DNA of 64,000 nt, taken from contig CP169074.1 in NCBI GenBank assembly GCA_041891055.1, positions 32,001 through 96,000 of the forward strand, read 5' to 3'. The notes beneath the pieces are model-generated. The model saw only the letters and a program-made list of their open reading frames with translations, had not been told where the DNA came from and made no database searches. Position numbers and translations under genes: made by a program. Positions 1,920 to 46,803 of this stretch are shown piece by piece. The stretch's first letter is position 1. Every line of letters begins with the position of its first letter. This stretch comes from Halorutilales archaeon Cl-col2-1 (lineage in GTDB: Archaea > Halobacteriota > Halobacteria > Halobacteriales > Afararchaeaceae).

Positions 1920-3350
1920 TCAGTCGCGCTCTTCCTCGACGCCTATCGAGTCGAATATACGTGACTCGACCGCCTCTGCTGTGAGTTCGAGAAGAGTCTC
2001 GCGGTCTTCGCCAGTCTCCCCTATTCCCTTGAAGAGTCCGAGAGGAACCCGGGCGTTGGCTCTTCGGGTGTGTCCCGCGACCTCCCCTATTCCGCCAAAG
2101 GCGTCTTCGAGAACCCTCGCTATGTTGATACGGATGTCGTTAGACCTCGCGGCTATATGTATGTAGTCGTCGGTTATTCCGAAGACAGCCGTAGTATTCA
2201 CGCCTTCGAGTGAGAGGAGATGGTCGGCGGCGGGTATTAGAGCCTCGTTGTCGTTTATGTATCCCGCGTTAGATATGAGGTAGGAACTCCTGACCTCTCT
2301 GTTGTGTATCGAGTCGGCGAGTACGTCGAAGGTCTCGGGGCTCATAGACGGAGACTCTATCTGTTCGAGAAGCTCGTGGTCGGCGAGTGCATAGAGGTAC
2401 GCAGCTGCTGTCAGGTCGGCGGGGGCAGTGTTCCGGAAGTCGTCTGTCGCCGTCCTTATACCGTAGAGTAGAGCCGTCGGAACCTCGTTAGGAACGTCCG
2501 CCTCGGTCTCCTGTATGTACTTCGTCATTATAGTCGATGTACTCCCTAGGTTGGGACGGATGTCCTCGAACTCGGCGTCGACCTCGTACTCCGAGGCTCT
2601 GTTGTCTATGAATATGTCTACCTCCGTACCCTCTTCCTCTACGTTCTCGACGTGGTCATAGACAGCTACTGTTCCGTAGTCGTCGAGGTCGACGCCGCTC
2701 ATTCTAGTGAGATCTATCTCGAGGAGGTTAACGAAAGCCTGGTTCTCTCTGTGTCCGAGGTCTCCCTTGTAGAGTATCTCCGCCTCGACGTCGAAGCTCT
2801 CAGCGATGCTTTCGAGAGCGACGGCGCTCGCTATCGAGTCGGGGTCGGGACTGTCGTATACGAGTATCGCCATCTTTCCGTCGGTCGACTTTATGACATC
2901 GACGAGGTTTGAGACGCGGTACTCCATCTCTCCCGTCTCGACCGCCCGGAGAGCGCTCTGTGCTATAACTGTGGGGGGATTTATGACCGAGTCGGCACCC
3001 TTCTCTATGAGAGTCTCCTGTGAGACGGGGTCGGACGCCCTCACGACGATGTACTGTTCCCTACCCGTCTCACGGAGATTTTCGAGAGCCTCGGCATTGG
3101 CGTCTATGTCGTCCGTAAGTATGAGAACGACGTGTCTGTCGGAGACCTCCTCCGTCGCCTCGGGGTCACGTATGTCCATCTGTATCGCGTTGAGATCCTG
3201 ATCCCTCAGCGACTCGACACGGCTCTCGTCCTTGTCGATTATAGTGATCTCTTTCCCCCTGTTGAGTAGATCCTGAGCCACCTCGTATCCCACACTTCCG
3301 CAGCCGAGTATACCGTACCCGGAGGCGGTGTCGGGGACTCTTTCGACCAT
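1920..3350 (-). CDS. TrkA-N (RCK) + DHH/DHHA1 family phosphoesterase-like protein with degenerate catalytic motifs
   Basis: N-terminal GCGSVG Rossmann/RCK motif and DHH motif I (SPDPDSIASA); the DHH position reads DNR. Confidence 0.8.
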   Translation of the reverse strand: MVERVPDTASGYGILGCGSVGYEVAQDLLNRGKEITIIDKDESRVESLRDQDLNAIQMDIRDPEATEEVSDRHVVLILTDDIDANAEALENLRETGREQYIVVRASDPVSQETLIEKGADSVINPPTVIAQSALRAVETGEMEYRVSNLVDVIKSTDGKMAILVYDSPDPDSIASAVALESIAESFDVEAEILYKGDLGHRENQAFVNLLEIDLTRMSGVDLDDYGTVAVYDHVENVEEEGTEVDIFIDNRASEYEVDAEFEDIRPNLGSTSTIMTKYIQETEADVPNEVPTALLYGIRTATDDFRNTAPADLTAAAYLYALADHELLEQIESPSMSPETFDVLADSIHNREVRSSYLISNAGYINDNEALIPAADHLLSLEGVNTTAVFGITDDYIHIAARSNDIRINIARVLEDAFGGIGEVAGHTRRANARVPLGLFKGIGETGEDRETLLELTAEAVESRIFDSIGVEEERD

Positions 3351-3552
3351 GCCTCAGACAAGACGCGGAGACACTTACATCTTCAGTTTGGACACCGGCG
3401 TGAGAGTTATACGTCCTCAGTCTCCAAACTCTTCCATGGCATCTGTTAGCATCAGTATACCCGACGAGATACACGACGAAGTTCTCGAGTACGCCGAGAA
3501 ACATACCGAGTCGGTCGATCAGGCTTACGTGAAGTACCTCGGGGACAAGCCC

Positions 3553-3650
3553 CGTCACAAGATCTCCGATCTTGTTGGCACGTCAAACAAAGTTTGACGA
3601 ACGTCACGAGAACTTCGTTCTCGCGGGCTCGCAAATCTTCGATTTGCGAA
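3553..3650 (+). repeat. Two tandem 49-bp twin-hairpin repeat units
   Basis: CGTC ACAAGATC TCC GATCTTGT TGGCA CGTCAAAC AAA GTTTGACG AA / CGTC ACGAGAAC TTC GTTCTCGC GGGCT CGCAAATC TTC GATTTGCG AA. Confidence 0.9.
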
Positions 3651-3967
3651 CGAGGCTTCGCCGTTTTGGGTCTGCACCGCACCCGCAGGCGAATTTAATT
3701 CCTCCCGACCTTGTGCATCAGCACTTGGCTGGAATTAACACCCGAACACCTCGATAGTGTCCGTGGGAGTCGGTCGCTCCACCACGACCCGATAGTGCCC
3801 GTCTCACCGCCGTAGCGGGTTTTTGAGAGGCACCACATTTCCATAGTTTACTCAGTCAGCGTTGGATTAAGGTCTTTAACCCGTCTTTGGAGTTTTTCTG
3901 ACTGTTACTCTACTATGCGAACCGTGGTTAGTTAAAAGTTCGTGTCGGCTTCACCCTCGGGGTCAAG

Positions 3968-4019
3968 TCAAGGAAAATCTTTGATTTTCCGTATCCCAAA
4001 AAGCTCTGCTTTTTGAAGA
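3968..4019. repeat. 52-bp twin-hairpin element (variant subfamily)
   Basis: GGAAAATC TTT GATTTTCC and CAAAAAGC TCT GCTTTTTG hairpins lying inside CCTCGGGGTCAAG|CCCCGAGG. Confidence 0.8.
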
Positions 4020-4157
4020 CCCCGAGGCACTCGCCTTGCTTTCTGTAGAACTCGTTGAGTTCGCACTCAACAACGTCGAACATGACCCCGACGAGGACAC
4101 CTACATAATGTGACTCTAACGGGACTGTTTTTAGTGCCCAAGCCGTACTCCGAGTAA

Positions 4158-4613
4158 ATGGCGATCACCGACAGGATCTATCTCAAGGACGCGAACGCCA
4201 TATCGAGTCAGATCGACAGGAGGATGCCACGTAACATCTTCAGCGGCGCGGCTCTCGACATTCTTTACTCGACTGAGGCTCTCGAAAGCCTCGACCCCGG
4301 GACACGTGATCAGCTTCTCGAGTTCGTCGAGGACTTCCTCGACTGCGGCTGTAAGGACGCGCCCTACTGTGGACATCCCGAGGAGAAGTTCATGGAGTAC
4401 CTCCTCGAACTCCGTTCGGCGGGTCTCTCTCCCGACGAGATAGTTGAGACGATGGAAGCGGAGTACGGTCTCTACGCCTACACGGGTGACATACTCGACT
4501 TCCTCGACTCCGCCGTCAGAAACCTCGAAGCCTTCGAGAAGATAGCCGGCGCGGCTGGTAAGGACGGAGTGAAAAGTAGGTCCGAGAGACTGAGACGCGA
4601 CCTGGTCGAGTAG
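4158..4613 (+). CDS. DUF5814-like protein (resembles C-terminal domain of archaeal helicases)
   Basis: MAITDRIYLK start and FLDCGCKDAPYCGHPEEKF Cys/His cluster. Confidence 0.7.
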   Translation: MAITDRIYLKDANAISSQIDRRMPRNIFSGAALDILYSTEALESLDPGTRDQLLEFVEDFLDCGCKDAPYCGHPEEKFMEYLLELRSAGLSPDEIVETMEAEYGLYAYTGDILDFLDSAVRNLEAFEKIAGAAGKDGVKSRSERLRRDLVE

Positions 4614-11747: not shown

Positions 11748-13004
11748 CTAGAAAGTCGACATCTCGCCGTGTATTATGTCACGTGTGAGGTCAGTCACAT
11801 TTTCGAGGGCGTCGTCTGTGATCGACTCTATCTCGTACTCGACGTCGGAGAGTTCGACGCCTTCCTCTGTCTGAACCTGGAGACCGGCTATCTGTGGCTC
11901 GTCTATCGGCTTTCCTATCTGTGACAGGAGCTTTACCCTCAGGTCTTCTATGCCGTCGACCTCGTCGACGACCTTCCTCGCTATACGTATCGAGAGGAGG
12001 TTGTAGATCTTGCCTATGTGGTTGACGGGGTTCTTTCCGCTCGTGGCTTCGAGGCTCATGTTCCTACTCGGGGTTATGAGACCGTTGGCGCGGTTGCCCC
12101 TTCCGACGCTTCCGTCGTCTCCCATCTCCGCGCTCGTTCCCGTCTCTGTGAGGTAGAAAGTCCCCTCGTCCCGAGGACTCTTTGAGTCCTCGTGTGCACG
12201 CGAATCTTCAGATTCGCGAACGTCGTAGTCGTCGGCGGTGTTGACTGCGACGTTGAGGTCTCTGTCAGTGTGTTTCTCGGCTGTCGAGGCAACGAACTCC
12301 CTCACGTCCTCCATCACGCTGATATACTCGTCGGCGTCCTCGACGTACTCCGAGACCGTCGCCGCCGCGACCGTGAGATCTAACGTCTCGCCCTCGCGTT
12401 TCCCCATCACTTTGACGTCCTCTCCCACCGCGGGAATCTCGTGTCTCAGGTCTTCGTAGATCTGTGTCTCGGTCTCGTAGACTACCTTCTCGGTCTCGGA
12501 GAAGGGCGCGTGACCCACTCCGAACGAGGTGTCGTTTGCCTTCGGAACCGCACCGTCCTCGAGCTTGAAGACGTCCTTGAGATCTGTCGACCCCTCGCCC
12601 ATACGTACGTCGACGACGACCTCGGATTCAAGGTCGATATTCTGGAGAGTGTCGTCGATATAGTCGCGTGCCGCCTTGACAGCGAGGGTGTCGGTGGGTA
12701 TCGCCTCGCCCTCGAACTCCTTAGTCGCCCTTCCGACTATCAGGACGTAGATCGGCTCGACGACCTCACCGCCACCGAAGTCGGGCTGGCTCCGTCCTGC
12801 GACCAACTGACACTCATCTGTGTTGTGGTGGAGGACAGCACCGAACCTGTCGAGGTACTCCTGAGACAGCGCGCGCATCACCGACTCCGCAATGCCGTCA
12901 CAGATAGAGTCGGGATGTCCCATTCCCTTTCTCTCGGCGAGCTCGATCCTCTGTTGATCCACAGGGATCTCGTCGAGAGACTCCACTCTTATATTACGCT
13001 CCAT
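11748..13004 (-). CDS. mat: Archaeal S-adenosylmethionine synthetase, carrying an 18-aa in-frame insertion
   Basis: [54 protein letters not shown]; likely start ATG 13004. Confidence 0.95.
12168..12221 (+). repeat. 54-bp twin-hairpin element inserted in frame within mat
   Basis: CGTC C CGAGGACTC TTT GAGTCCTCG TGTGCA CGCGAATC TTCA GATTCGCG AA CGTC; encodes [18 protein letters not shown] on the minus strand. Confidence 0.88.
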
Positions 13005-13101
13005 ACACAGAGTCGTCGCCGGCTGATCTAATAACTTCTGATCACATCTCCCGACGTGGGTTAAAGTTATGAGTATAGACTCCTCTAACATAACCTAACG
13101 C

Positions 13102-46705: not shown

Positions 46706-46803
46706 TTCGTAAATCTTGATTTCGTTAGCCCGCGAGAACGGAGTTCTCGGGACGTTCAGAAATCAAAGATTTCTGAGCCCACGAGAGCAAAGCTCTCGGG
46801 ACG
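46706..46803 (-). repeat. Two tandem 49-bp twin-hairpin units (reverse orientation; the 46706-46754 unit is partly degenerate)
   Basis: Reverse complement of 46755-46803 = CGTC CCGAGAGC TTT GCTCTCGT GGGCT CAGAAATC TTT GATTTCTG AA, the same architecture as 3602-3650. Confidence 0.88.

Follow-up and report, generated by a model that had tools for sequence, protein, structure and literature searches.

Both end palindromes of a transposase-less IS200/IS605-type element from a haloarchaeon carry nested twin-hairpin repeats

Results

A PATE with two split palindromes interrupts a small ORF

The window, i.e., the whole stretch of 64,000 nucleotides that we analysed from the genome of Halorutilales archaeon Cl-col2-1, contains a small mobile element whose parts are collected in Table 1 and whose top strand (the tnpB sense) is the minus strand of the window. 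The element splits a small ORF: when the sequence is read through the 3528/4045 joint, the frame that begins with the ATG at 3436 continues uninterrupted through 53 codons; a Pfam search of this ORF returned nothing significant. The longest frame lying wholly within 3529-4044 is at most 76 aa according to the ORF list, and searches of the genome for Y1_Tnp and TnpB domains gave no match within these bounds. In Rfam searches, the region 3300-4300 matched no family save one at chance level (E 0.13), and the single match in the whole window was a tRNA.

Table 1. Features of the element and its flanks (positions in the window).
Feature	Position	Strand	Remarks
Small ORF split by the element	3436..4113	+	parts 3436-3528 and 4045-4113
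PATE, IS200/IS605-type, no transposase gene	3529..4044	-	516 bp; from empty-site joints and second copy
Right-end terminal octamer	3529..3536	-	top strand TACTTCAC
Right-end subterminal palindrome, first 18 of 21 nt	3537..3554	-	CCTCGGGGACAAGCCCCG; rest AGG at 3653-3655
Twin-hairpin unit 1, 49 bp	3555..3603	+	covariance model 65.5 bits
Twin-hairpin unit 2, 49 bp	3604..3652	+	covariance model 66.8 bits
Final trinucleotide AGG of the interrupted right-end palindrome	3653..3655	-	from sequence
Element core	3656..3954	-	right-end-proximal part homologous to tnpB 3′ end and region downstream
Left-end subterminal palindrome, first 13 nt (plus strand)	3955..3967	-	CCTCGGGGTCAAG; rest at 4020-4027
Twin-hairpin insert of a different subfamily, 52 bp	3968..4019	+, orientation uncertain	missing from intact homologues
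Remainder of the split left-end palindrome	4020..4027	-	CCCCGAGG; from sequence
Left-end terminal segment	4028..4044	-	boundary from empty-site joints; similar segments in other copies
Flank GTAGA (TCTAC on top strand), likely target 5′ of left end	4045..4049	-	conserved

The bounds of the element follow from joints in metagenome contigs of three runs, which skip 516 bp (3528 to 4045 in X1, 3531 to 4048 in X3 and X4) and hence delimit 3529-4044 with an ambiguity of 2 nt and no target duplication; the same span had been guessed in the original prediction, which was made from the letters of the window. Two of the empty-site contigs reach 18.6 and 26 kb; in their flanks, 9 of 532 and 16 of 553 positions deviate from the window. 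Given that these contigs, 97-98% identical to the window in the flanks, join 3528 to 4045, the element is missing at this site in close relatives. A second copy lies at C1:1208142-1208664, in flanks that differ from those of the window.

The element has no terminal inverted repeats; instead, similar palindromes, CCTCGGGG-ACAAG-CCCCGAGG and CCTCGGGG-TCAAG-CCCCGAGG, stand near both termini on one strand, both in the same direction, with 8 and 17 nt between them and the element ends. On the plus strand, the window reads GTGAAGTA, CCTCGGGGACAAGCCCCG (3537-3554), 98 bp (3555-3652) and AGG, and GTGAAGTA is the start of the element in every copy inspected, on the side opposite GTAGA. The octamer TACTTCAC is common to the window element, C1:1208k, G001, G005, the Haladaptatus plasmid and a Natrialba TnpB element, and the flanks diverge past it. 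At the other end, GTAGA follows the element in seven copies (window, C1:1208k, C1:750941, G001, G005, G022, Haladaptatus plasmid), and G011 has GTACA. Insertion 3′ of TCTAC together with a right end that closes with TACTTCAC, as in the minus-strand reading, is typical of IS200/IS605 elements.

The core matches 21 haloarchaeal plasmid records. A homologous element of the 366-bp type on a plasmid of Haladaptatus sp. YSMS36 is 88% identical over the core, and positions 208-315 of the core query overlap the 3′ end of the annotated TnpB gene of Natrialba magadii pNMAG02; the region downstream of the tnpB 3′ end, to which part of the core is homologous, is where characterised elements encode omega RNAs. 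Left ends of the same type lie directly 3′ of tnpA, the Y1 transposase gene, in G022 and G001, a tnpB at C1:750846-752600 has the same loaded left end as the window element, and the same palindrome type terminates two tnpB elements of this genome with 410-aa ORFs. The ends homologous to those of tnpA/tnpB elements and the insertion on the TCTAC side without duplication agree with the predicted assignment of the host to the IS200/IS605 type. The element at 3529-4044 is a palindrome-associated transposable element (PATE) as Dyall-Smith et al. (2011; PMC3119063) use the term.

The palindromes are interrupted by twin-hairpin units

The sequence bears out that the right palindrome is split by 98 bp in two units, with the CG repeated, and the left one by 52 bp (3968-4019), with an outer stem around two hairpins that the DNA fold also returns; the predicted coordinates were correct to within one base, the right palindrome starting at 3537 and not at 3538. 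The 98-bp insert consists of two different 49-bp units, each starting with TC, followed by hairpin 1, a (T)GGC spacer, hairpin 2 and an AACG end; all four stems are perfect, 7-9 bp long and closed by 3-nt loops, and CG flanks the insert on both sides. Identical copies of unit 1 are found at C1:1208168 and as the first unit of the array at C2:58177-58225, and a single unit similar to unit 2 occupies the same site at C1:682503-682551. The 52-bp unit of the left end has no CG junction, a point against the reading given in the Discussion; it is of a different subfamily, and the covariance model described below does not match it. Folded as DNA, the left end forms a 10-bp outer stem around the two hairpins (-23.4 kcal/mol, z -5.3, none of 200 shuffles as good), and the right end, folded as single-stranded DNA, keeps a 5-bp CGGGG/CCCCG hairpin beside the four unit hairpins. 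All four twin-hairpin loci predicted for the window exist (3555-3652, 3968-4019, 12169-12222 and 46723-46801).

Intact homologues identify the inner hairpins as insertions

On the Haladaptatus plasmid both palindromes are whole, with the same ACAAG and TCAAG loops and with CCTCGGGGACAAGCCCCGAGG as the intact right-end form; hence, the inner hairpins of the window element are insertions. In G005, four copies among the matches listed go directly from position 26 of the query to position 123, the two segments sharing the 2 nt CG, and their right palindromes lack the 98 bp (one inspected copy has one stem mismatch). The left palindrome occurs without the 52 bp in G011:C12, G020:C110 and G022:C5, in G022 directly 3′ of the tnpA gene. 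The only intact copy of the right-end palindrome in the genome under study, at C2:112942, is of the CCTCGGGGTCAAGCCCCGAGG form and lies 3′ of a 410-aa tnpB. The load of this palindrome varies from none (C2:112942) over one unit (C1:682503) and two (window) to nine hairpins (C2:58001-58223), and the left palindrome of the C1:682k element is likewise split.

One might suppose that the inner hairpins are a native end structure of the element family and were never inserted, since both full copies and all four copies of this left end in the genome bear the same inserts, and the loaded left end is kept across families with stem-preserving changes (G011). Such a view is extremely improbable in the face of the uninterrupted palindromes of the Haladaptatus plasmid, of G005 (right) and of G011, G020 and G022 (left), of the intact C2:112942 form in the same genome, and of a unit number that ranges at one site from none to a nine-hairpin array. 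Because intact homologues exist, it does not hold that all copies share the same internal hairpins; these intact forms corroborate the predicted interruption of the end palindromes by inserted mini-elements, and they establish both the nesting and its polarity.

The units belong to a family with more than a hundred matches in the genome

Throughout the genome we counted 514 perfect hairpins (stem of at least 7 bp, loop of 3 nt), among them 148 adjacent pairs. The twin hairpins are not a product of chance: the first 500 kb contain 112 hairpins and 28 pairs, as compared with 35 and 0 in one shuffle. A covariance model built from 19 units gave at least 109 matches at E ≤ 0.01, at least 103 of them non-overlapping, with 150 of 1372 candidates scored. 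The units are 49-54 bp long and highly variable in sequence, and their structure is kept; as the arrays hold different units, they are not tandem duplications. CG stands before 40 of 59 array edges and also closes the units; its presence on both sides is compatible with a 2-bp duplication or with the insertion behind a CG of a unit whose own last letters are CG. A strand bias test of G.T against A.C mismatches comprised three cases only.

When the covariance search was extended to 41 genomes, it returned 85 units in the genome under study (G000) and 87 in the sister genome G001. G011 had 20, six other genomes had between 1 and 9 each, and the remaining 32 had none. No plasmid matched the 98-bp two-unit insert in blastn, and a scan of genome contigs for a longer pattern likewise gave nothing. 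At an intergenic site orthologous to window positions 46723-46801, the array of the sister genome (G001:C2:95400-95860) is ~300 bp longer and holds at least 14 hairpins versus 4, between flanks that are 94-96% identical; since the size of an array differs at an orthologous site, arrays grow or shrink on a short time scale.

Units are enriched at the ends of tnpB elements

Of the at least 103 non-overlapping matches, 35 are associated with tnpB: 3 fall within its ORFs, 20 flank the gene toward the right end and 12 toward the left end. When strict arrays were considered, 31 of 85 fell within the 1.58% of the genome that surrounds the ends of tnpB ORFs, whereas random placement put 1.66 arrays there on average and never more than 7 (2000 trials). 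Moreover, in-silico excision brought back a perfect hairpin, GC-rich and no shorter than 8 bp, at 15 of 85 arrays (mean 1.0 and maximum 3 in 40 random replicates). Hence, the predicted enrichment of twin-hairpin inserts at IS200/IS605 ends is corroborated by both counts, and the comparison with random sites, set beforehand, gave a clear excess in the tnpB-end zones. A looser restoration test (stem of at least 7 bp, any GC content) gave 35 of 85 versus 15-25 in the controls and was set aside as too permissive in favour of the stricter one.

By our inspection, 15 of 29 full-length tnpB copies have units in the stretch from the stop codon to the right terminus, whereas closely similar copies have none. 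Sites after GAGCG and inside the CCCCA|CCCT arm recur; some copies have units there, and in close relatives the sites are empty. G005 carries a different 54-bp unit at the exact left-end position of the 52-bp unit of the window. Since units multiply along with their host elements, the enrichment figures are counts of copies and overstate the number of independent events; proven independent gains are few, namely the left ends of the window element and G005, and the filled versus empty right-end hot spots.

This caveat leads to the alternative that the units have no target preference at all, a few chance insertions having been amplified by host transposition and by recombination between ends. 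Common descent indeed accounts for many of the units in these ends: the window, C1:1208k and C2:58k have an identical unit 1, and one six-hairpin array is found three times unchanged. In addition, 68 of the 103 model matches lie away from tnpB. We nevertheless consider this alternative quite unlikely: it does not account for different units at the same left-end position in the window and G005, for at least three separate right-end hot spots that hold different units or unit numbers alongside empty sister copies, or for GC-rich hairpins restored by excision at 15 of 85 arrays, where about 1 is expected. An independent tally of SMR-A, small repeats of Haloquadratum walsbyi, likewise stands against it, as 104 of 192 nested events were insertions of SMR-A that had a PATE or an IS605-type transposon as target in the part of that report which deals with nesting (PMC3119063).

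Another view would be that the units are selected functional modules, such as extensions of the TnpB guide-RNA scaffold or regulatory hairpins, and not selfish DNA. On the right-end side, 18 of 20 units are opposite to tnpB in orientation, so that one orientation relative to tnpB prevails, and compensatory changes keep the stems. However, the same units are found in protein-coding genes, near tRNA-like ends and in intergenic arrays that differ between sister genomes, and many functional-looking tnpB copies have no units, which makes this view very improbable. We retain targeted insertion as the preferred reading, and infer that the units are attracted by the hairpin-forming single-stranded ends of the elements.

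The loaded element seems to have retained its mobility

Between the window element and its copy at C1:1208k, overall identity is 82%, yet their ends agree without a difference, over ~80 nt on the right, unit 1 included, and over ~89 nt on the left, where the stretch takes in the complete 52-bp unit. The loaded left end is present at four places in this genome and at least six in the sister G001, at one of which it adjoins a tnpA ORF; at G011:C1:258307 it bears stem-preserving substitutions and an inverted loop. The right end in G001 holds a single hybrid unit, the sequence of which is consistent with a deletion between the two units. On such comparisons of copies and on the empty site in close relatives, our results suggest that the loaded element is still able to move. 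The empty site in the metagenome contigs could reflect excision of an older, unloaded element; the sister copy argues otherwise.

The original prediction had also considered that the units are retained because they immobilise the element, which finds no support in view of the empty site in close contigs, the second loaded copy and the recurrence of the loaded left end. A wider form of this idea is that the units are kept as a host defence since they disable the end palindromes and so immobilise IS200/IS605 elements. The insertions fall in palindromes that TnpA binds in characterised members, and the only tnpA-bearing element of the genome has its left palindrome filled by a 140-bp six-hairpin array. 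In addition, the PATE is represented by 2 full copies here versus at least 14 core copies in G005 (14 among the matches listed), whose sampled right ends are intact, and defence is the reading that the authors of PMC3119063 proposed for SMR-A in their treatment of nested insertions. We find it improbable nonetheless, because the loaded element is polymorphic at its own site, two copies at different loci have identical loaded ends, the loaded left end occurs in many copies (next to a tnpA ORF in G001), the folds keep the 10-bp outer stem on the left and the 5-bp hairpin on the right, and units also lie in ordinary genes and intergenic DNA.

Joints that omit 98, 52 or similar lengths also occur in the metagenome runs, with sides that measure just 20-28 nt; an origin in other copies or organisms is probable, and these joints are at most a hint. 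In contigs of X3 and X4 (depth 10 and 22) we also observed a joint from 4040, near the left end, back to 3529, the first base of the right end, with six other letters between, which could represent two adjacent copies or the circle junction of a related copy.

Units inside genes and beside tRNA-like sequences

The 54-bp unit at 12169-12222 lies in frame within an archaeal S-adenosylmethionine synthetase gene (minus-strand ORF 11751-13094). In the HMMER alignment to 4l4q_A, the solved chain has a 17-residue gap at the unit; the G001 ortholog, of equal length and 96% identical, shares the insert, and the G011 ortholog matches with 54 nt fewer. Two tnpB ORFs of 435 and 411 aa contain units in frame as well (G000:C1:129990-130037 and C1:219448-219495), both encoding the same 16-residue stretch just before the VLGVDLG motif, and other long ORFs read through units, e.g., at C1:1774566, C1:1205609 and C1:645162. 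The arrays at G000:C1:372191-372382, C1:182120-182189 and C1:1656349-1656393 abut what looks like tRNA 3′ ends (GGTTCAAATCCC-type flanks).

Discussion

Small repeats that target the end palindromes of IS605-type elements are already known since 2011, when SMR-A (HqIRS42, HqIRS43 and HqIRS55) were reported from Haloquadratum walsbyi (Dyall-Smith et al., 2011, PLoS One 6:e20968; PMC3119063). As that paper characterises them in its account of the repeats, SMR-A are about 110 bp long, the members of a type being over 95% conserved. Prominent inverted repeats mark their termini, the target is not duplicated, and the preferred sites of insertion are the palindromes near the termini of PATEs and IS605-type transposons; their mobilisation was called enigmatic (PMC3119063). 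The units described here resemble them as short haloarchaeal repeats without a transposase and with the same preference for palindromes, but are set apart by that description in several respects. They measure 49-54 bp instead of about 110 bp and consist of two unlike hairpins with 7-9-bp stems and 3-nt loops, variable in sequence, combined into mixed arrays and lying mostly beside CG. Their ends (TCRCAAGATC... and ...GATTTGCGAA) are alike when inverted only insofar as both hairpins follow a loose shared consensus, and the CG on both sides would fit a 2-bp duplication as well as insertion after CG. The host element itself shares all essentials of PATEs and of the IS200/IS605 type as outlined in PMC3119063 (conserved pentanucleotide at the insertion site, near-terminal palindromes of nearly the same sequence, no transposase) and differs solely by the nested units. 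Finally, the 2011 report, in its discussion of nesting, read the targeting by SMR-A as an inactivating defence, whereas the loaded element here appears mobile, and our population data suggest that the loaded form still moves. A literature search in a limited collection returned no paper besides PMC3119063 on small repeats targeting IS605-type end palindromes. To this picture our results suggest adding the evidence for retained mobility, a natural pair of loaded and empty ends, units in genes and, possibly, further archaeal lineages.

Two other classes of small repeats invite comparison. Bacterial REP/BIME sequences associated with RAYT are short hairpin repeats that form pairs and alternating arrays and are linked to Y1 HUH enzymes, and the units described here are likewise hairpin pairs and mixed arrays. 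Unlike REP, they have no GTAG-type head and are located inside mobile-element ends and genes, not just in intergenic DNA. A RAYT-like gene flanked by inverted repeat copies was not found in the genome search, whose sole Y1_Tnp match is an ordinary tnpA, divergent from tnpB inside an insertion sequence and associated with units only within the left palindrome of that element. Rickettsia palindromic elements are small palindromic repeats that can sit in frame within protein-coding genes, similarly to the unit in the S-adenosylmethionine synthetase gene; their sequence, size and host are unrelated, and they have no known preference for transposon ends.

Taken together, we interpret the locus as a non-autonomous element that carries nested twin-hairpin units of a targeted family and has retained its mobility, a reading to which we assign as a whole a probability of about 0.8. 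The PATE would be a tnpA/tnpB insertion sequence reduced by deletion to its two ends and the surroundings of the tnpB 3′ end, and it inserted beside TCTAC inside a small gene without target duplication. Both of its GC-rich subterminal palindromes hold nested 49-52-bp mini-repeats from a unit family of more than 100 copies that settles preferentially in such palindromes and in the region downstream of tnpB, mostly beside CG, and new units are added onto existing ones, giving rise to arrays of mixed units. If the loaded element stays mobile, as we think, the units are passengers (hyper-parasites) of insertion sequences and not their inactivators.

As to what moves the units, our leading guess, which we put forward tentatively and consider less likely than not, is that an enzyme dependent on single-stranded hairpins, e.g., the one Y1 TnpA of the genome, acts on them in trans. 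The mechanism of IS200/IS605 elements is known from work on IS608, and the strand bias at the right end, the CG at both junctions and the preference for hairpin DNA fit a single-strand reaction of the TnpA type; the genome search found one intact Y1_Tnp ORF (C1:979038-979397). On the other hand, a role of TnpA is disfavoured by the composition and position of the unit hairpins: they are rich in AT, and only 2-4 nt separate them from the unit ends, whereas the palindromes of the insertion sequences here are GC-rich and lie 8-27 nt from the ends. The association of tnpA with units across the 41 relatives is weak and confounded by kinship: 12 of the 32 genomes without units have Y1_Tnp, and five of the six with 1-9 units have no Y1_Tnp match, two of those genomes being 78% complete. 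An even bolder proposal, and in our judgement an unlikely one, combines several claims, namely that the 49-nt unit is the smallest known substrate of hairpin-dependent ssDNA transposition, and that it is a hyper-parasite which, by means of TnpA or a conserved archaeal enzyme, integrates into extruded IS200/IS605 end hairpins and rides along, reaching DPANN and methanogens and residing in frame in essential genes.

The ends of IS200/IS605 elements are the recognition sites of TnpA, the right end is also part of the guide RNA of TnpB, and TnpB is the ancestor of Cas12. Repeats of 49 bp that land in the end hairpins alter the substrate of both proteins. The empty palindromes of the Haladaptatus plasmid and G005 form a natural test pair with the loaded palindromes of the same element, which opens the questions of how much of the palindrome TnpA needs and of what moves the mini-repeats.

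The exact palindrome of the second unit hairpin, TCGGAAATC-NNN-GATTTCCGA, was encountered in at least 118 places in genome contigs (loci L014-L131), many of them in assemblies of Woesearchaeota, Nanoarchaeia, Micrarchaeota, Methanosarcinales and Methanobacteriota, and often beside a second hairpin with an 8-9-bp stem and a 3-nt loop. About 25 of 100 loci tested gave a full-length model match of at least 29 bits, as compared with ~23 bits for the hairpin alone, by which these loci had been picked. The spread of the units to those archaeal lineages is only a lead.

We also noticed loops that are inverted between unchanged stems, TTC versus GAA at window positions 3638-3640 and C1:1208251-1208253, and TTT versus AAA for G011:C1:258307-258403; the inversion of a 3-nt hairpin loop is a signature of template switching within the hairpin. 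The left palindrome CCCCGCCC...GGGCGGGG beside the only tnpA (G000:C1:979447-979586) encloses six hairpins and is one of three near-identical copies, the others lying at C1:533469-533608 and C2:51551-51690; a fourth copy at C2:69963-70006 encloses the outer two hairpins only, which indicates nested insertion.
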